Source: Shigella phage vb_GEC_SH_GT | Sequence record: OR887633 | Length of the DNA: 64,000 nucleotides | Reading direction: 5' to 3' (one strand) | In this document: positions 5,098 to 47,172 of the stretch, one piece after another | How the letters are laid out: each line of letters starts with the position of its first letter | Position numbering within the stretch: position 1 is the first letter of the stretch | Translations under genes and position numbers: made by a program | Notes under the pieces: model-generated | Databases searched by the model: none | Seen by the model: the letters and a program-made list of their open reading frames with translations, nothing else | Told to the model about the DNA's origin: nothing

Positions 5098-6015
5098 TCA
5101 AAATTCATTAATGCTATTAGTTAATTTAGAAAGACCCGCTTTTACAAAATATGAATAAATTTTGCCACGCGGTGGTAATTTATATGAATTATAGTAATTC
5201 ACAATGTTTGAAGCAATATTATCAGGAATATAATCAAAATCAATTAGAACTAAATTTTCTTTATAACGATTATATTCAGATTCTGTAAGAAGCACCTTAG
5301 CTTGCTCACGGTCATTAGCAATAGCTTCAACGATTGAAGTTTTCATTGAAGGAGTTCGTTCACCTTCAACTCTGGTAAACCAAAAGTCAGATCGTACTTT
5401 AACTGAAGCCACGTTATCCTTTTTGTCGCCTTTAAGGATTTTAGTCATACAGTCAATTTCAGCAGAACCGCTTTTAATTTTAACCCATTTCTTGTGCATC
5501 GGTGACCATTGCTTAACATTTGGGTATTTGTGAAGCTGTGTAAAGTCACCATCCGACGAAATGATTAAAATCTTATGTCCTTCTAAAGAGAACTTTTTAA
5601 CAAGAACAGCAATGTGGTCATCTGCTTCATACTTATCAATATCCATAACAATGTATGGCATATAAGCTTTCAATTCATCTATAACTTTATGACTGGATTC
5701 AAAATAACCTTCCCAGTCCCAAGTCGATTCTTCTCGTGCTTTTCCACGGTTTTTCTTATAATAATAAGCGAAATCACGACGCCAGTATCCAGATTTCGCG
5801 TTATCAATACACAGTACAATTTTAGTGTATCCAAGAGTTTTTGCTTTTTTGACATTAAACTTAATTGAGTTCAATATCAAATGACGAACCATTGATAAAT
5901 TAATTTTTTCTTTATCTGGGAAGTTTACTAAAGCAGTTGAAAGAGCAATTTGACTAAAGTCAATAAAGCAAATTCCTTCTTTGTAATCTTCATCCAGCAT
6001 CATTTCTAAATCCAT
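5098..6015 (-). CDS. rnh: RNase H (5'-3' exonuclease, FEN family)
   Basis: 305 aa from ATG at 6015 with GAGG SD (track start 6030 is TTG); FEN-like acidic motifs. Confidence 0.85.
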   Translation of the reverse strand: MDLEMMLDEDYKEGICFIDFSQIALSTALVNFPDKEKINLSMVRHLILNSIKFNVKKAKTLGYTKIVLCIDNAKSGYWRRDFAYYYKKNRGKAREESTWDWEGYFESSHKVIDELKAYMPYIVMDIDKYEADDHIAVLVKKFSLEGHKILIISSDGDFTQLHKYPNVKQWSPMHKKWVKIKSGSAEIDCMTKILKGDKKDNVASVKVRSDFWFTRVEGERTPSMKTSIVEAIANDREQAKVLLTESEYNRYKENLVLIDFDYIPDNIASNIVNYYNSYKLPPRGKIYSYFVKAGLSKLTNSINEF

Positions 6016-6044
6016 ATGAACCTCGTTCAATTAGTGAGATTTCT

Positions 6045-6074
6045 ATTATATACCATCCAAATCTTAAAGTAAAC
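6045..6074 (-). promoter_or_regulatory. early promoter for rnh
   Basis: GTTTAC (6074-6069), 18-bp spacer, TATAAT (6050-6045) on minus strand. Confidence 0.5.
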
Positions 6075-6077
6075 AAG

Positions 6078-6085
6078 TATAAATA
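6078..6085 (+). promoter_or_regulatory. late promoter TATAAATA for gene 34
   Basis: exact TATAAATA 35 nt upstream of gene 34 ATG. Confidence 0.7.
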
Positions 6086-6119
6086 CTTATTATTGAAAAC
6101 ACAATAGGAGCCCGGGAGA

Positions 6120-9100
6120 ATGGCCGAGATTAAAAGAAAGTTCAGAGCAGAAGATGGTCTGGACGCAGGTGGTGATAAAATAATCAACGTAGCTTTAGCT
6201 GATCGTGCCGTAGGAACTGACGGTGTTAACGTTGATTACTTAATTCAAGAAAACACAGTTCAACAATACGATCCAACTCGTGGATATTTAAAAGATTTTG
6301 TAATCATTTATGATAACCGCTTTTGGGCTGCTATAAATGATATTCCAAAACCAGCAGGAGCTTTTAATAGCGGACGCTGGAGAGCATTACGTACCGATGC
6401 TAACTGGATTACGGTTTCATCTGGTTCATATCAATTAAAATCCGGTGAAGCAATTTCGGTTAACACTGCAGCTGGAAATGACATCACGTTTACTTTACCA
6501 TCTTCTCCAATTGATGGTGATACTATCGTTCTCCAAGATATTGGAGGAAAACCTGGAGTTAACCAAGTTTTAATTGTAGCTCCAGTACAAAGTATTGTAA
6601 ACTTTAGAGGTGAACAGGTACGTTCAGTACTAATGACTCATCCAAAGTCACAGCTAGTTTTAATTTTTAGTAATCGTCTGTGGCAAATGTATGTTGCTGA
6701 TTATAGTAGAGAAGCTATAGTTGTAACACCAGCGAATACTTATCAAGCGCAATCCAACGATTTTATCGTGCGTAGATTTACTTCTGCTGCACCAATTAAT
6801 GTTAAACTTCCAAGATTTGCTAATCATGGCGATATTATTAATTTCGTCGATTTAGATAAACTAAATCCGCTTTATCATACAATTGTTACTACATACGATG
6901 AAACGACTTCAGTACAAGAAGTTGGAACTCATTCCATTGAAGGCCGTACAACGATTGACGGTTTCTTGATGTTTGATGATAATGAGAAATTGTGGAGATT
7001 GTTTGACGGGGATAGTAAAGCGCGTTTACGTATCATAACGACTAATTCTAATATTCGTCCAAATGAAGAAGTTATGGTATTTGGTGCGAATAACGGAACA
7101 GCTCAGACAATTGAGCTTAAGCTTCCAACTAATATTTCTGTTGGTGATACTGTTAAAATTTCCATGAATTACATGAGAAAAGGACAAACAGTTAAAATCA
7201 AAGCTGCTGATGAAGATAAAATTGCTTCTTCAGTTCAATTGCTGCAATTCCCAAAACGCTCAGAATATCCACCTGAAGCTGAATGGGTTACAGTTCAAGA
7301 ATTAGTTTTTAACGGTGAAACTAATTATGTTCCAGTTTTGGAACTTGCTTACATAGAAGATTCTGATGGAAAATATTGGGTTGTACAGCAAAACGTTCCA
7401 ACTGTAGAAAGAGTAGATTCTTTAAATGATTCTACTAGAGCAAGATTAGGCGTAATTGCTTTAGCTACACAAGCTCAAGCTAATGTCGATTTAGAAAATT
7501 CTCCACAAAAAGAATTAGCAATTACTCCAGAAACGTTAGCTAATCGTACTGCTACTGAAACTCGCAGAGGTATTGCAAGAATAGCAACTACTGCTCAAGT
7601 GAATCAGAACACCACATTCTCTTTTGCTGATGATATTATCATCACTCCTAAAAAGCTGAATGAAAGAACTGCTACAGAAACTCGCAGAGGTGTTGCTGAA
7701 ATTGCTACGCAGCAAGAAACTAATGCAGGAACCGATGACACTACAATCATCACTCCTAAAAAGCTTCAAGCTCGTCAAGGTTCTGAATCATTATCTGGTA
7801 TTGTAACTTTTGTATCTACTGCAGGTGCTACTCCAGCTTCTAGCCGTGAATTAAATGGTACGAATGTTTATAATAAAAACACTAATAATTTAGTTGTTTC
7901 ACCTAAAGCTTTGGATCAGTATAAAGCTACTCCAACACAGCAAGGTGCAGTAATTTTAGCAGTTGAAAGTGAAGTAATTGCTGGACAAAGTCAGGAAGGA
8001 TGGGCAAATGCTGTTGTAACGCCAGAAACGTTACATAAAAAGACATCAACTGATGGAAGAATTGGTTTAATTGAAATTGCTACGCAAAGTGAAGTTAATG
8101 CAGGAACTGATTATACTCGTGCAGTCACTCCTAAAACTTTAAATGACCGTAGAGCAACTGAAAGTTTAAGTGGTATAGCTGAAATTGCTACACAAGTTGA
8201 ATTCGACGCAGGCGTCGACGATACTCGTATCTCTACACCATTAAAAATTAAAACCAGATTTAATAGTACTGATCGTACTTCTGTTGTTGCTCTATCTGGA
8301 TTAGTTGAATCAGGAACTCTCTGGGACCATTATACCCTTAATATTCTTGAAGCAAATGAGACACAGCGTGGTACACTTCGTGTAGCTACACAGGTCGAAG
8401 CTGCTGCAGGAACATTAGATAATGTTTTAATAACTCCTAAAAAGCTTTTAGGTACTAAATCTACCGAATCGCAAGAAGGTGTTATTAAAGTTGCAACTCA
8501 GTCTGAAACTGTGACTGGAACGTCAGCAAATACTGCTGTATCTCCAAAAAATTTAAAATGGATTGTGCAGAGTGAACCTACTTGGGCAGCTACTACTGCG
8601 ATAAGAGGTTTTGTTAAAACTTCATCTGGTTCAATTACGTTCGTTGGTAATGATACGGTAGGTTCAACACAGCCATTAGAATCATACGAGAAAAATAGCT
8701 ATGCAGTATCACCATATGAATTAAACCGTGTATTAGCAAATTATTTGCCGTTAAAAGCAAAAGCGGTAGATAGTAATTTATTGGATGGTCTAGATTCATC
8801 TCAGTTCATTCGTAGGGATATTGCACAGACGGTTAATGGTTCACTAACCTTGACACAACAAACGAATCTGAGTGCCCCTCTTGTATCATCTAGTACTGGT
8901 GAATTTGGTGGTTCATTGGCCGCTAATAGAACATTTACCATCCGTAATACAGGAGCCCCGACCAGTATCGTTTTCGAAAAAGGTCCTGCATCCGGGGCAA
9001 ATCCTGCACAGTCAATGAGTATTCGTGTATGGGGTAACCAATTTGGCGGCGGTAGTGATACGACCCGTTCGACAGTGTTTGAAGTTGGCGATGACACATC

Positions 9101-29924: not shown

Positions 29925-30344
29925 TTATTCCTTAAAGTGAGCTTTCAACATCTGATACAAGGACCATGCTTGTTCATTATTTTCAATAGTAACTTTCATT
30001 ACCGGGAATTCTGTGAAATCTTCTATTTGTTCTTGCTCTTCCTGCTCTTGTTCTTCAGCAGCCTGATATGGATTTTCCACTTCATCAAAGAACCCAGCTT
30101 CGTTAGTAGAAAGCCAGATAAAGTTTTCGTCAAGGATATCGCCATGTTTTGCATATCCAATTGTGCCAGTAGATAACATAATTTTAGTAGGACGCCCAAG
30201 ATAATCAGCATCTAAAATTTTAAAAGGTTCCATACCTAAACGTCGTGCATAGATTCCGTTATCAGTATGGTCTTTAATAAAATTTTCTTGAGCTTGTTTA
30301 TTTTTAAATTGATACCATTTATTAACTTCAAATCTAATAGCCAT
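29925..30344 (-). CDS. hypothetical protein (goF position)
   Basis: 139-aa ORF with acidic [10 protein letters not shown] stretch. Confidence 0.4.
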
Positions 30345-32586: not shown

Positions 32587-32616
32587 ATAATACCACAACT
32601 AACCGAGGAAGTAAAC
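32587..32616 (-). promoter_or_regulatory. T4-type early promoter
   Basis: GTTTAC (32616-32611), 18-bp spacer, TATTAT (32592-32587). Confidence 0.5.
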
Positions 32617-36444: not shown

Positions 36445-36474
36445 ACTATATCATTTTTACTTCAGCTTGTAAAC
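36445..36474 (-). promoter_or_regulatory. T4-type early promoter
   Basis: GTTTAC (36474-36469), 18-bp spacer, TATAGT (36450-36445). Confidence 0.5.
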
Positions 36475-42532: not shown

Positions 42533-42733
42533 ATGGTACAAAAATTAATGGCACTTGTTAATGCCATCAAAGGTAATAAGAAACGTATAGCTTTTACTAT
42601 TTCTGCTATGATAGGAATTTTACTTTGGAATTTTGTTTTATCGCCAGTTGCTATTGCTCATGGCGTTAGTATTCCAGTAGTTACTCTTGATACATTCGTA
42701 GATTTAGCATTTGCTTTAGTTGGGTTAATTTAA
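42533..42733 (+). CDS. small two-TM membrane protein, function unknown
   Basis: 66-aa ORF; AAAGGAGG SD 5 nt before ATG; basic N-terminus then two hydrophobic helices; convergent with gene 61. Confidence 0.5.
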   Translation: MVQKLMALVNAIKGNKKRIAFTISAMIGILLWNFVLSPVAIAHGVSIPVVTLDTFVDLAFALVGLI

Positions 42734-43758
42734 ATCTTAGCATATTTAGATAGCCGCATTTTAGCCATTAACCCCTGGGCAATATTATTTTTCATATATT
42801 CCATAATTTGTTCAGGGGTTGCACCTTCCTTTCTAATCATATCATTAACATCTTTTGATTTCCAGGGAGATTTATCCCAAAACATAACCCTTTCTCCTGC
42901 ATCAACTAATTTAGTCATTCGTTTAATAGTGTCAGGGTGACGAGGTTCATTATCTAAAACCCACACTCGTCTATCTTTAAATGGAACAACTTCTAGGTCT
43001 AATTGACCACCCGTAATAGCTATACCATTTTCAATAAAAAGTGAATCTATAGGTCCTTCTAGAACATATACATCACCATCTTTAACTCGTTCGACTCCAT
43101 AGATTTTTGTTGCTTCAGGATAAGCTTTGATGGTGATATATTTTTGAGGAGCATCTTTCTTTAATGCGCGTCCTTGAAAAGACTCAGCTTTTCCATTAGC
43201 ATTATAAATTGGAATAACAAGACGAGGCTCGGGTATTTCCTTTTTATATGTTCCTGGTGCTATACTATTAACTAATTTAGGCCATTCAGTTGTAAACCAA
43301 AGATATTTCCATTTATCCTTTGGAATACAACGAGCTTTTACGTATTTTATAATTGGATGGTCTTCCGCCAGTTTATCCAATCTAATGCATGACGGAAGAG
43401 ATTTAATTATTTTCTTCTCGGGTTGTTTAGGAAGTTCTTTAGGTTTTTCTACTGGACGACTTTTACCTTTTTCTTTTCTTATTTCAAAGATATACTCACG
43501 ATATAAATCAGGTTCAAACTCCTTTAAATATATTCCGATTGGTGCATGATAGTTACAGTTATAACAATGAATATTTCCTTCATTATTATCACCATAATAC
43601 CATCCACGGGCTTTATTTTGGTCGGTTTTTGAATCTCCACAAACAGGGCATCTAAACCGTAATTTAAAAGTTGAACTATTATTTACTTGTGTGAATTTAG
43701 GTAAATGAGCTAATGCACGATATGCAAACTCATTATCAATCCAAGGTATTGATGACAT
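42730..43758 (-). CDS. 61: DNA primase gp61
   Basis: 342 aa; zinc ribbon (CPVCGDS...CYNC) and TOPRIM region. Confidence 0.85.
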   Translation of the reverse strand: MSSIPWIDNEFAYRALAHLPKFTQVNNSSTFKLRFRCPVCGDSKTDQNKARGWYYGDNNEGNIHCYNCNYHAPIGIYLKEFEPDLYREYIFEIRKEKGKSRPVEKPKELPKQPEKKIIKSLPSCIRLDKLAEDHPIIKYVKARCIPKDKWKYLWFTTEWPKLVNSIAPGTYKKEIPEPRLVIPIYNANGKAESFQGRALKKDAPQKYITIKAYPEATKIYGVERVKDGDVYVLEGPIDSLFIENGIAITGGQLDLEVVPFKDRRVWVLDNEPRHPDTIKRMTKLVDAGERVMFWDKSPWKSKDVNDMIRKEGATPEQIMEYMKNNIAQGLMAKMRLSKYAKI

Positions 43759-43760
43759 TT

Positions 43761-43925
43761 TTACTCTTCTTTTTCTTTAGATTCCTCTTTTTTCTTTTTA
43801 GGAATCTGTTCAGGACCTTTATTTACTACAGCGCCTGACGTTGTTCCAGTAGAGATATTTTCAGGATTACCACCTGAATCTCCAGCGACCATATCTTCTT
43901 TAATAAATTCTTTATATGTTTTCAT
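43761..43925 (-). CDS. small hypothetical protein (54 aa)
   Basis: manual ORF with lysine-rich tail. Confidence 0.35.
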   Translation of the reverse strand: MKTYKEFIKEDMVAGDSGGNPENISTGTTSGAVVNKGPEQIPKKKKEESKEKEE

Positions 43926-43926
43926 A

Positions 43927-44283
43927 TTAACCTCTATTCATAAAAGCATTAAAAATTTGGTCATCAATTGATGGAACAGCAACCTTTTCTACATCATTTA
44001 ACAAATCATTAATTTCATCAGATAGCATAACGCATGTACCTTTATTTCCTGTAATTGTTACTGCGCAATTACGAACGTTTTCTTTATCAAATTTTAGGTT
44101 AATATTTTCGTAGTGAAAATCCTTTAATGCCGAATATATTTTTAAAATGAAATTGTCTTTTACTACAATAAACCCAACCTCACTATTAAAACGAGGTTCA
44201 TGGAAGCTGTAATAAACCTTTTCATCTATAAAATCGTATGAAATTTTTTCCATTTTTAAATATGAAAATTCAGAACTATACAT
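43927..44283 (-). CDS. hypothetical protein
   Basis: 118-aa ORF. Confidence 0.45.
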   Translation of the reverse strand: MYSSEFSYLKMEKISYDFIDEKVYYSFHEPRFNSEVGFIVVKDNFILKIYSALKDFHYENINLKFDKENVRNCAVTITGNKGTCVMLSDEINDLLNDVEKVAVPSIDDQIFNAFMNRG

Positions 44284-44295
44284 ATTAACCTCTAA

Positions 44296-44589
44296 TTACT
44301 CACCTACCACTTCAGCGATGATATTTTTATTATTAAAGTTTTTATCGCAATACAAAACGTAATTATACTGCATTACACCACCAGACTTAAGCTGTTTTTG
44401 CACTTCAGCTTTCATTTCAGGACGATCACGCTCAACGATATTCATAATATCTGCTTCAATTTGAGTTTCAACTTCAGTCTGATCTGCAGTCATAGACCAT
44501 TCACACAAGTCTTTATCATAACCCGCCATAGCAGGCTGAGCAGCGCAAGAAGATAAAGCAAAAATTGCAGCAAAGATAAATTTTTTCAT
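44296..44589 (-). CDS. sp: periplasmic spackle protein Sp
   Basis: 97 aa; N-terminal signal peptide; sequence and position. Confidence 0.75.
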   Translation of the reverse strand: MKKFIFAAIFALSSCAAQPAMAGYDKDLCEWSMTADQTEVETQIEADIMNIVERDRPEMKAEVQKQLKSGGVMQYNYVLYCDKNFNNKNIIAEVVGE

Positions 44590-44617
44590 GATAATCTCCT
44601 CAGTAGTTTATGTTTAT

Positions 44618-44647
44618 ATAGTATCTCAATTTTCAACAAAAGTAAAC
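44618..44647 (-). promoter_or_regulatory. T4-type early promoter for sp
   Basis: GTTTAC (44647-44642), 18-bp spacer, TACTAT (44623-44618). Confidence 0.5.
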
Positions 44648-44694
44648 ACTAGTAGAAGCAAACAGACAAATTGCAATAATTGGTGATTTCAGTT

Positions 44695-44877
44695 TCATTC
44701 TTCTCCTCCTTCATGTTGATGAACATATTCTTTTTCAAGTCTAGAGCACAAGTTTTCATATTCAACTAATAAGAGTGAATCAAGTGCGTTATTTCTATGC
44801 TGACACCGTTCTTGTAAAGAATCCATCTCTGAACGTTGTTCTTGTGTTAATAATTGATAACCTGATACTTTAGACAT
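44695..44877 (-). CDS. hypothetical early protein (60 aa)
   Basis: ATG at 44877 with GGAGA SD; own early promoter. Confidence 0.45.
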   Translation of the reverse strand: MSKVSGYQLLTQEQRSEMDSLQERCQHRNNALDSLLLVEYENLCSRLEKEYVHQHEGGEE

Positions 44878-44913
44878 TTTGTTCTCCATTTACTCGTTTG
44901 TTTTGATAGGTCT

Positions 44914-44942
44914 ATAATAACATGTTTAAAACAAAAGTAAAC
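44914..44942 (-). promoter_or_regulatory. T4-type early promoter
   Basis: GTTTAC (44942-44937), 17-bp spacer, TATTAT (44919-44914). Confidence 0.5.
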
Positions 44943-45196
44943 TATTTTATTTCCTCAAGTTCGTTAATCAATAAAAGTTCTCTGACACTAAAAACAAAGA
45001 AAAATGTGTTCCCATCAACCAGAGCATGACCGCTAATAGAACACCCTCTGCGGAATTTAGAAACTTCACAATCTAGAACTGTAAAGGGTTTTAATCCTAT
45101 GACTTTAGCTGTGCGTCTATTCAGTTCACAACCACTTGCGAATTTTTCCAAATCTTCTTCTGATTTAAACTGATATTCTCTATTAACTAGCATCAT
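44942..45196 (-). CDS. hypothetical early protein (84 aa)
   Basis: ATG start; own early promoter. Confidence 0.45.
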   Translation of the reverse strand: MMLVNREYQFKSEEDLEKFASGCELNRRTAKVIGLKPFTVLDCEVSKFRRGCSISGHALVDGNTFFFVFSVRELLLINELEEIK

Positions 45197-45227
45197 TTTC
45201 TTTTCTCCGCGATTAGCTGATAGAATT

Positions 45228-45257
45228 ACTATAACACAACTCTATCAGCTTGTAAAC
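45228..45257 (-). promoter_or_regulatory. T4-type early promoter
   Basis: GTTTAC (45257-45252), 18-bp spacer, TATAGT (45233-45228); -10 embedded in inverted repeat. Confidence 0.55.
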
Positions 45258-45259
45258 TA

Positions 45260-45502
45260 CTATTTTACTAGCACCAATAACTGTTTCTCTAACTTGACGA
45301 TTTTACGAAAGTATCTTTTGCATTGGCGAATCTGTCGCTTCGTAGGGCGCACAGCAAACTTAATAAATTCCACTCGACCAAATGGAGGACTTTCTTCTGC
45401 TGGAATATCTAACACCAATTCCCACGTATCTGCAACAAGTGCTTTGAATTGAGTATTTTTCCTGACATTATACGGAGTAGGTTTAAATAAAACAATGTGC
45501 AT
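45260..45502 (-). CDS. hypothetical early protein adjacent to dmd (80 aa; possible TifA-like)
   Basis: ATG at 45502 with GAGGA SD; longer track ORF starts at TTG inside dmd. Confidence 0.4.
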   Translation of the reverse strand: MHIVLFKPTPYNVRKNTQFKALVADTWELVLDIPAEESPPFGRVEFIKFAVRPTKRQIRQCKRYFRKIVKLEKQLLVLVK

Positions 45503-45503
45503 A

Positions 45504-45686
45504 TTATCCTCGGCAATCCACTTCGCATACTTTCTTGTCATCAATGAAAGCTTTAACTAGTGCTTTATTAACTTCAGCATATTGAGTAGTAGCCCATTGA
45601 ACGTCATCTTTCATCATTGTGATTTCTTTAGTAAACATGCTTTCATTCTTAAACCACCCCATAAAAACTACCTTTACCAATTCCAT
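45504..45686 (-). CDS. dmd: Dmd antitoxin (inhibitor of RnlA/LsoA-type toxins)
   Basis: 60-aa ORF immediately downstream of gene 41. Confidence 0.7.
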   Translation of the reverse strand: MELVKVVFMGWFKNESMFTKEITMMKDDVQWATTQYAEVNKALVKAFIDDKKVCEVDCRG

Positions 45687-45715
45687 AACAATCTCCCCAT
45701 TTAACCAACAAGACT

Positions 45716-45745
45716 ACTATACCATAGTCTTGTCAGCTTGTAAAC
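45716..45745 (-). promoter_or_regulatory. T4-type early promoter for dmd
   Basis: GTTTAC (45745-45740) overlapping gene 41 stop, 18-bp spacer, TATAGT (45721-45716). Confidence 0.55.
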
Positions 45746-47172
45746 TAAAATTTTAATTCATTTGCCAAAGCATCTAACTGAGCTCGAGCCGATTCATTTC
45801 TTTGATAGCGATTCTGCTCAGCTTGAATCTGCTGTGAACCTGCCACTTCGTTCACTTCAGTTGGAGTAGAATCTTGTTCAATTTCTACCCATTTCTGATT
45901 TCCTTTTTGAACACCCATCAAAAACTTATTCCATTTATTCTTATCACCATATCGTGATTTGATTTGCTTAATTAGTTGTTGTTCAGCAGCTGCTAACTCC
46001 TCGGTTTCAATGACCGCAAGCATAAAATCGGCTGTTGCTGGAAGACCGGCAGATTCTGCAATATCGCTCATGTTAACATCAGAAGAATCCCAAGCTTGCT
46101 TACCAACCTGTGCTGCAGTCCAAAGAACAGTTTCGGTTTCAACAGCCAGAGCACGCAATTCTTCTGCGATGGCTTTAACAGTTGTGTAACTATTTTCCGA
46201 ATAAACTCTGATGCGGCAAGATTTACAAATACCCAGATAGTCAACAATAATGATTGTTGGAACAAAATTCTTCTTGAGCTTCAATTCGTTTAAAAGAGAT
46301 CGAAATGTATTAGCGTCTGCTCCACCAGTAGGATACTGTTTAACGATTAAACGACCGAGAGTAGATTTCTCACGCCATTTTTCCATTTTTCCTTTATACT
46401 CAGCATAAGAAATATGCCCATCATCAATGTCATCAAGAGAAACATCAAGCATATTAGCATCAATACGCTTAGCACAAACTTCTTCTGCCATTTCCATGGA
46501 AATGTAAAGAACATTATGTCCGAGCTGCAAATAATCTGCTGCCAATGAACACAGACCTAATGACTTACCAACGTTAACACCAGCCATTAAAACGTTCAGT
46601 GTTCCAGTTTCAGCTCCGCCTTTAGTAATTTTATTTAGAATTTTGAGTTTAAATGGAACCTTACGAGCTTTATTCATATAAGATAGCCAACGTGCTTCGT
46701 AGTCATCCATCCAATCATGACCAACGTAGCTATCAAATGAAATTGATAATGCTTGGCGCATGATGTCAGGAATAGCACCTACATCTGGCATTTTCTTATT
46801 TCGTTTTTCCGGAGGAAGCTCAGCATTAGTTTGAATTTCAATTATTTTAGATGTGGCGTTAAACATCGCCCTTTGCTGAACATATTTTTCTGTTTCTTTT
46901 ACTAACCAGCTGTGGTCTTCCGGAGAATCGGTTAGTTTTGAAATAAGTGTTTTTACACCAGAATATTCTGTTTCAGTAAATGAACTATTTTCTAATGCAA
47001 CATTTAACGCATTAATAGATGGAACGCTATGATACTCGTTAACATGAGATTTAATTAATTTGAATGTATTTTTAGCTGGACCACTTTCAAAATATTCTGA
47101 ATCCATATATGGCCAAACTTTTGAAAAATAAGCTTGATCAAATATGAGATGAGAAAGAATAATTTCTACCAC
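45745..47172 (-). CDS. 41: replicative DNA helicase gp41 (DnaB-like)
   Basis: 475 aa; Walker A GVNVGKS; GTG start. Confidence 0.9.
   Translation of the reverse strand: MVEIILSHLIFDQAYFSKVWPYMDSEYFESGPAKNTFKLIKSHVNEYHSVPSINALNVALENSSFTETEYSGVKTLISKLTDSPEDHSWLVKETEKYVQQRAMFNATSKIIEIQTNAELPPEKRNKKMPDVGAIPDIMRQALSISFDSYVGHDWMDDYEARWLSYMNKARKVPFKLKILNKITKGGAETGTLNVLMAGVNVGKSLGLCSLAADYLQLGHNVLYISMEMAEEVCAKRIDANMLDVSLDDIDDGHISYAEYKGKMEKWREKSTLGRLIVKQYPTGGADANTFRSLLNELKLKKNFVPTIIIVDYLGICKSCRIRVYSENSYTTVKAIAEELRALAVETETVLWTAAQVGKQAWDSSDVNMSDIAESAGLPATADFMLAVIETEELAAAEQQLIKQIKSRYGDKNKWNKFLMGVQKGNQKWVEIEQDSTPTEVNEVAGSQQIQAEQNRYQRNESARAQLDALANELKF

Follow-up and report, generated by a model that had tools for sequence, protein, structure and literature searches.

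Two optional early gene cassettes beside the dmd-tifA operon in the sp-dmd interval of a Tequatrovirus genome

We analysed the interval between the genes sp and dmd (positions 44590 to 45745) in a 64,000-nucleotide stretch of DNA from Shigella phage vb_GEC_SH_GT (sequence record OR887633), hereafter the window. The window is a segment of a Tequatrovirus genome whose nearest records are REP4, IME339, ime09 and PP01 (98-99% identity over the interval), and every gene of the sp-dmd region is transcribed from the minus strand. An original prediction, made from the letters alone, had placed three small open reading frames (ORFs) between sp and dmd, and all three are present on the minus strand. Deposited genomes already annotate them as hypothetical or 'goF'-like proteins. 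The features of the interval and the genes that bound it are as follows, in the direction of transcription.

45745-47172, minus strand: gene 41 helicase
45693-45745, minus strand: P-dmd, a T4-type early promoter (GTTTAC, 18-nt spacer, TGGTATAGT), followed by the GGAG ribosome-binding site (RBS) of dmd
45504-45686, minus strand: dmd (61.5), antitoxin-like inhibitor of RnlA/LsoA (Pfam Dmd PF17587, E = 1.6e-46; PHROG 2102)
45260-45502, minus strand: ORF3, tifA (61.4), 80 amino acids (aa), homologous to T4 gp61.4 (Pfam DUF7279)
45205-45257, minus strand: P-ORF2, a predicted early promoter (GTTTAC, 18-nt spacer, TGTTATAGT) with a 14-bp hairpin, followed by a GGAGAA RBS
44942-45196, minus strand: ORF2, 84 aa, a predicted stand-alone GoF-type LSm/SH3-like beta-barrel
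44914-44942, minus strand: P-ORF1, a predicted early promoter without a hairpin (GTTTAC, 17-nt spacer, TGTTATTAT)
44925-44942, minus strand: upstream copy (-35 box) of the direct repeat GTTTACTTTTGTT (repeat D3), bounding the ORF1 cassette
44695-44877, minus strand: ORF1, 60 aa, a predicted acidic helical hairpin (phrog_37915)
44618-44647, minus strand: P-sp, a predicted early promoter with the downstream copy of GTTTACTTTTGTT (motif scan, repeat D3)
44296-44589, minus strand: sp (spackle; Pfam T4_Spackle, E = 2.8e-45)

The start of ORF1 was set at ATG 44877, which has a GGAG 6 nt upstream and gives a protein of 60 aa; a 64-aa call from the upstream ATG 44889 was dropped in its favour on account of this GGAG, of the PHROG profile, which covers residues 5-64 of the longer form, and of Ec_MI-02, which lacks the upstream in-frame ATG. 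ORF3 starts at ATG 45502, for which a 94-aa call was dropped, and the dmd stop codon occupies 45504-45506, a one-base spacing identical to that of dmd and 61.4 in T4. When ORF1 and ORF2 were compared with divergent homologues, synonymous sites were saturated (pS 0.75-0.80), as against a nonsynonymous pN of 0.13-0.38. Since pN lies far below pS in both families, ORF1 and ORF2 are taken as real proteins, and the substitution pattern indicates that they are genuine coding genes under purifying selection.

ORF3 is not a new gene. It shares 95% identity over 77 aa with T4 gp61.4 and matches Pfam DUF7279 (PF23945) at 71.5 bits, with a cut-off of 24.5, which identifies it by sequence as the TifA/61.4 orthologue. 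The present name of gene 61.4, tifA, comes from Srikant et al. (2022), whose experiments showed it to be a ToxN inhibitor co-transcribed with dmd (PMC9391042), and Guegler et al. (2023) reported that TifA traps ToxN on RNA (PMC10853763). In that protein F41 tunes inhibition, and the basic, Pro-Thr-capped C-terminal helix (P53, T54, K55, R56, R59) is needed for RNA binding and ToxN neutralisation (PMC10853763); direct reading of ORF3 showed F41, R52, P53, T54, K55, R56 and R59 all kept (..AVRPTKRQIRQ..). T4 has only 61.4 between sp and dmd, as the original prediction stated, and 61.4 is indeed TifA (PMC9391042). Its proposal of three candidate new inhibitors holds in part: ORF1 and ORF2 are additional to T4, but the third is TifA itself. 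Neither extra gene appears to be a copy of tifA, ORF2 being rejected as a TifA paralogue at a BLASTP E value of 12 and ORF1 for want of any alignment with ORF3, to which it has no detectable similarity.

ORF1 and ORF2 behave as accessory, freely assorting cassettes. In counts that take in GenBank/RefSeq duplicates and closely related isolates, dmd-tifA DNA was found in 502 phage records, the ORF2 cassette in 70-74 (~14%), ORF1 in 20 (~4%) and the full arrangement with both cassettes in 16. Four arrangements occur: dmd-tifA-sp in T4 and T6, dmd-tifA-ORF2-sp in Shfl2 and RB3, dmd-tifA-ORF2-ORF1-sp in this window and in ime09, and dmd-tifA-ORF1-sp in Ec_MI-02 and IsaacDaniel. With ORF2 in ~14% and ORF1 in ~4% of related phage records, the extra genes are therefore not core, and the three ORFs are not a conserved T-even set arranged as in T4. 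DNA of the ORF2 cassette (44942-45259) has an identity of 99% or more in 73 of its 74 carrier records, and the adjacent dmd-tifA segment (45260-45745) is mostly 95-99% identical across the 502; this uniformity could reflect a recent spread of the cassette or carriers that form one clade.

A scan of the window for GTTTAC-N16-18-TANNNT returned 19 matches on the minus strand and zero on the plus strand, with 2.9 +/- 1.4 expected on both strands together from dinucleotide shuffles. Four of the 19 fall inside 44618-45745, ahead of dmd (45745), ORF2 (45257), ORF1 (44942) and sp (44647), and the same pattern scan found no GTTTAC-type promoter between dmd and ORF3. This concentration is well above chance and, with none of the matches before ORF3, the claim that two of the ORFs have an early promoter of their own and that the third is coupled to dmd is therefore correct. 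GGAG is contained in all four RBSs of the interval, and we take it to be the RegB cleavage motif that in T4 biology is typical of early messages. From the type of promoter, immediate-early expression of the cassettes is suggested.

P-dmd and P-ORF2 belong to a 64-nt direct repeat (D1), and each is predicted to fold into a hairpin that overlaps the -10 box. In P-dmd the spacer would pair with the bases directly after the -10 box (14-15 bp, -18.9 kcal/mol, z = -4.7), and in P-ORF2, which begins 3 nt past the tifA stop codon, a 14-bp stem would enclose it (-18.0 kcal/mol, z = -3.5); the two stems differ in sequence and are equal in architecture. No such hairpin was predicted at P-ORF1 or P-sp, and the fold of P-ORF1 was not different from those of shuffled sequences. 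The P-dmd element is also present in T4, Shfl2 and Ec_MI-02, and the same architecture with other stem sequences recurs in a Tevenvirinae contig (gp41 88% identical to that of the window). An Rfam scan of 43700-46000 with E values up to 1 gave no match to a known RNA element, and a terminator scan found no intrinsic terminator at the P-dmd and P-ORF2 stems, which are not followed by a U-tract. The motif GTTTACAAGCTGA, common to P-dmd and P-ORF2, was considered as a special repeat and rejected, its third exact copy (36462-36474) being an ordinary early promoter with no predicted hairpin.

Similar structures were seen elsewhere in the window. Strong predicted hairpins (-15 to -24 kcal/mol) accompany further minus-strand GTTTAC promoters at 32616, 31511, 22435 and 1482, enclosing the -10 hexamer at the first three and overlapping it partly at 1482. 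Their stem sequences vary from site to site, about 6 of the 19 window promoters have such a hairpin, and a motif like TATCAACTAC recurs downstream, ahead of GGAG.

Boundaries of the cassettes fall within these regulatory motifs. Alignment with Shfl2 and T4, neither of which has the ORF1 cassette, placed this cassette as 295 bp between the two -35 copies of GTTTACTTTTGTT. In ORF1-only phages (Ec_MI-02) a hairpin promoter of the ORF2 type runs into ORF1, with the join exactly inside GGAGAA, the RBS common to ORF1 and ORF2. The left edge of the ORF2 cassette lies in the last codons of tifA, which therefore ends in one of two tails: an 80-aa form (...KQLLVLVK) in the window and Ec_MI-02, and an 85-aa form (...KQFVTCDYAEILK) in T4 and IsaacDaniel. 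The switch point between the tails coincides with this edge of the promoter cassette (window 45260-45290, the 3' end of tifA), and the tail form assorts independently of the cassette behind tifA.

Such junctions are known from T4-type phages as products of PeSL (promoter-early stem-loop) elements. Comeau et al. (2014) defined the T4/PST PeSL as TTTACW-N17-TAYWAT plus a stem-loop (PMC4122927), and Arbiol et al. (2010) showed experimentally in RB49/phi1 that crossovers occur between the -10 box and the Shine-Dalgarno sequence of flanking PeSLs (PMC2839356); at this same locus, microhomology-driven recombination was reported by Srikant et al. (2022; PMC9391042). The promoters of the interval fit the TTTACW-N17-TAYWAT consensus, and indel junctions of PeSL type were found between close relatives at GTTTAC -35 boxes and at GGAGAA. 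As in PeSL cassettes, predicted strong early promoters, two of them with a stem-loop, and RBSs flank small non-essential ORFs of a variable region, and the insertion/deletion junctions of close relatives lie in promoter and Shine-Dalgarno elements. The cassette junctions match the published PeSL-mediated modular shuffling. The present elements differ in that the predicted stem-loop encloses the -10 box rather than forming a separate terminator, with no U-tract, and in that only two of the four interval promoters have one.

ORF2 belongs to a described protein family. It matches PHROG 2980 (labelled 'goF') at E = 3e-20, and when used alone as a query against the window it recovers goF (29925-30344, E = 1.5e-5); it aligns to the N-terminal domain of GoF at 29-37% identity (29% over the whole domain). 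The protein stops after the barrel, at 84 aa against 139 aa for the window GoF; having neither linker nor C-terminal domain, it consists of one domain where GoF has two. The predicted fold is a barrel formed by a bent, five-stranded antiparallel sheet of SH3/LSm-like topology, with FeoA and IdeR-type SH3-like domains as its best PDB neighbours. From these data ORF2 is identified as a stand-alone member of the GoF/MotB.1/Frd.2 LSm-like family, described by Kim et al. (2025) with a suspected role in phage mRNA metabolism, not defence inhibition (PMC12152347). With GoF it shares early-gene status in a T4-like phage and the reported PDB neighbours; unlike GoF, which is conserved throughout Tevenvirinae (PMC12152347), it is accessory, consists of the barrel alone and stands in the 41-sp interval rather than at the goF locus. 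C23, C43, C52 and H57 are invariant in the ORF2 subfamily and absent from GoF, and could be a metal site; at the position of GoF D25, ORF2 has glycine.

Of the two extra genes, ORF2 is therefore not an unknown and ORF1 is a near-orphan. ORF1 is acidic (pI 4.9, net charge -6) and matches only PHROG 37915, a profile without assigned function. A word-indexed search of 5.8 billion proteins gave one near-identical cluster, and an exhaustive HMMER search gave nine remote relatives (47-69% identity) with the common motif GYxLLTxEQRxEMDxLxERxTH...EYExLCxRLExEY, relative to which the window ORF1 carries a 4-residue deletion. With that alignment AlphaFold2 confidently predicted a two-helix hairpin (predicted local distance difference test, pLDDT, 88.5). 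In cultured phages the family is confined to 20 near-identical Tequatrovirus records. The remote relatives lie on uncultured viral or metagenomic contigs and on a linear Vibrio fluvialis 'plasmid', with neighbours that are almost all unannotated; no relative turned up when 185,579 species genomes of bacteria and archaea were scanned, and IMG/VR yielded one locus for ORF1 and one for ORF2. In its 60 aa, acidity, predicted all-helical fold, early promoter, patchy spread and anti-defence neighbourhood, ORF1 resembles small acidic phage inhibitors such as many anti-CRISPRs and Dmd-like antitoxin mimics, but the likeness is one of type only, as neither its sequence nor its fold is similar to that of a characterised inhibitor.

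The Vibrio relative is an unannotated ORF at 6001-6171 of our locus L017, on pIDH5335-2, a 103-kb linear, non-mobilisable replicon, and is 68% identical to P0122, a member of the ORF1 family. It sits among small hypothetical genes, near an integrase, and a RelE/ParE toxin-HTH (helix-turn-helix) pair lies with its HTH gene ~0.8 kb away. Possibly the replicon is a phage-plasmid.

Downstream of sp the window continues with three further genes.

43927-44283, minus strand: 118-aa ORF
43761-43925, minus strand: 61.1
42730-43758, minus strand: gene 61 primase

The 118-aa ORF matches only positions 113-211 of Pfam PF23813, which correspond to the C-terminal half of the anti-DarT factor AdfA, and shares 35% identity with residues 109-208 of T4 gp61.2, including an identical ending (...SIDDQIFNAFMNRG). 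AdfA itself was reportedly established as an anti-DarT factor by LeRoux et al. in 2022. No full-length adfA (61.2) was found between 61.1 and sp of the window; Shfl2 has both the short and the full-length gene, T4 the full-length only and IsaacDaniel neither. The locus can be set beside the region that Srikant et al. (2022) named the T-even 'anti-TA island' (TA, toxin-antitoxin), flagging its other genes as candidates (PMC9391042). Both share the order 41, dmd, tifA, sp, with dmd and tifA under one early promoter, the RNA-binding helix residues of TifA are kept, and the gene just past sp is homologous to the C-terminal half of AdfA. The window differs in having two self-promoted genes between tifA and sp, which T2-, T4- and T6-type genomes lack, a TifA of 80 aa rather than 85 aa, and the 118-aa protein in place of a full-length AdfA.

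Related genera fill the same region differently. RB69 (our locus L008, 2512-3190 and 3653-4399) has imm and imm.1 (superinfection immunity) between tifA and sp, and two more unannotated ORFs between dmd and gene 41. In SP18 (Gaprivervirus) a homologue 57% identical to ORF2 directly follows gene 41, between 41 and dmd. Three metagenomic T4-like contigs (L014-L016) have an ORF2 homologue in the interval, upstream of a TifA-like gene, and no dmd was called in their 41-sp interval. Two of them, from the Logan metagenome and with gp41 88% identical to that of the window (L014 2179-3640 and L016 2179-3483), encode in order 41, a 253-aa ORF, the ORF2 homologue, the TifA-like gene (45% identity) and sp. 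The 253-aa ORF gave a weak, sub-threshold GIY-YIG match and is a possible Seg-like homing endonuclease. A 50-aa ORF separates the ORF2 homologue from the TifA-like gene in L014 and is absent from L016, where the ATG of the TifA-like gene directly follows the ORF2-homologue stop.

Taken as a whole, the data are probably best explained by a plug-in slot with a fixed dmd-tifA unit and two optional cassettes that serve host takeover or counter-defence, a reading we hold with moderate confidence. The sp-dmd interval would be a slot in the variable region that T-even phages have between genes 41 and 61; in this slot the dmd-tifA operon is the fixed unit and ORF2 and ORF1 are optional, each cassette comprising a promoter, a GGAG RBS and one small ORF. 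Cassettes would be gained and lost by recombination between GTTTAC -35 boxes and GGAGAA RBSs, and recombination at these repeated regulatory motifs would account for the relatives that carry neither, either or both. Judging from the promoter type, the cassettes would be transcribed by the sigma-70 RNA polymerase of the host within minutes of infection. For ORF2, the family and the repeated location next to tifA and dmd point to an RNA- or RNase-related activity, with RNA itself or a host protein that handles it as the most likely target; ORF1 is most likely a stoichiometric binder of a host protein, its size, charge and modelled fold being suggestive of a protein-binding inhibitor. Host-specific takeover or counter-defence would be the most likely role of both, and what points to counter-defence is the gene neighbourhood, the predicted early expression, the small size of the proteins and their patchy occurrence. 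With Dmd, TifA and AdfA all encoded within ~2 kb, arguing from neighbourhood is reasonable, but the idea of an anti-defence island had already been published for this region by Srikant et al. (2022).

Several observations weigh against a defence role. In searches of Pfam, NCBIfam, PADLOC and the PDB, neither ORF1 nor ORF2 could be tied by homology, fold match or domain fusion to a target in a TA or abortive-infection system, so the original suggestion of such a target did not find support. ORF1 has no match in Pfam or NCBIfam and no PDB sequence match, its best PDB hits (Foldseek E = 2.4, profile E = 0.31) are generic helical hairpins only, and its two longer relatives (115 and 169 aa) contain no Pfam domain, so that no domain fusion is seen. 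ORF2 likewise drew a blank in Pfam and NCBIfam, none of its PDB fold matches is an inhibitor, and its barrel is modelled with moderate confidence only (AlphaFold2 pLDDT 75.6, other models 46-65). Scans of the three ORFs with PADLOC and NCBIfam gave no matches; little weight attaches to the PADLOC result, as that library covers defence rather than anti-defence proteins. Within the GoF family, goF and motB.1 knockouts have no phenotype under laboratory conditions, and wild-type GoF barely affects RNA, stabilisation being seen with the D25Y mutant only (PMC12152347). Promoter activity, transcript ends and protein expression are predictions from sequence, the record counts include redundant entries, and it is gene neighbourhood alone that speaks for the candidate defence role of ORF1 and ORF2.

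Within this framework, one or both cassette proteins might represent a new class of inhibitor against an RNA-targeting toxin or abortive-infection system, which we think a tentative and rather unlikely possibility. In its specific version the ORF2 barrel, possibly metal-binding, would shield phage mRNA from a host endoribonuclease together with TifA or instead of Dmd, a version hinted at because the ORF2 homologues of L014-L016 lie directly upstream of a TifA-like gene with no dmd seen there; the acidic hairpin of ORF1 would block a different host effector. The leading alternative to a defence role is that ORF2 adjusts phage mRNA metabolism in the way proposed for GoF. In this explanation ORF2, and perhaps ORF1, would modulate phage gene expression; as a GoF paralogue, ORF2 would bind early or middle transcripts (for example around 41 and dmd) and, in certain hosts, set how stable they are or how far they undergo Rho-dependent termination. 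Points in its favour are the homology of ORF2 to the N-terminal domain of GoF, the frequent association of LSm/SH3-like folds with RNA, the placement of ORF2 homologues directly downstream of gene 41 in several genera, and the finding that GoF(D25Y) raises gene 41 mRNA and stabilises a reporter with the gene 41 5' untranslated region (PMC12152347). However, wild-type GoF and MotB.1 have little reporter effect and D25Y may be a gain-of-function change (PMC12152347), ORF2 has glycine for D25 and no GoF C-terminal domain, presence in just ~14% of close relatives is unexpected for a housekeeping regulator, and ORF1 is left unaddressed; we regard this alternative as unlikely.

The two cassettes might also be largely passengers that PeSL-type shuffling carries along and that affect fitness little, if at all, in most hosts. 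Their patchy spread and free assortment, the junctions at regulatory motifs and the restriction of ORF1 in cultured phages to ~20 near-identical Tequatrovirus records would all be expected of passengers, and PeSL-flanked ORFans are common in T4-type variable regions (PMC4122927, PMC2839356). The strong purifying selection in both families argues otherwise, as do their invariant residue sets and the fact that three or more Tevenvirinae lineages have retained ORF2 homologues in this interval, which makes this explanation quite doubtful. Finally, ORF1 lies directly upstream of sp and the RB69 slot holds imm and imm.1, which would fit extra genes that belong with spackle, in superinfection exclusion or envelope functions rather than against intracellular toxins. 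Sp and Imm are periplasmic or membrane proteins, but direct reading of ORF1 and ORF2 found no N-terminal hydrophobic signal or membrane-spanning stretch, and the models give a soluble acidic hairpin and a soluble barrel, respectively. Each gene moreover has its own promoter and so no operon link to sp, and we consider an assignment to spackle highly improbable.

The interval offers two testable candidates, the cassette genes; TifA, the GoF-type family, the idea of an anti-TA island and PeSL shuffling were already known. The exact junctions at -35 boxes and RBSs make the interval a clear illustration, from nature, of the exchange of self-expressing gene modules among T-even phages, and the relatives with neither, either or both cassettes form a natural comparison set for host range. 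A phenotype of ORF2, if found, would be the first wild-type function for the GoF-type LSm-like family. With three experimentally proven TA countermeasures, Dmd, TifA and AdfA, the locus is a prime place for further small inhibitors.

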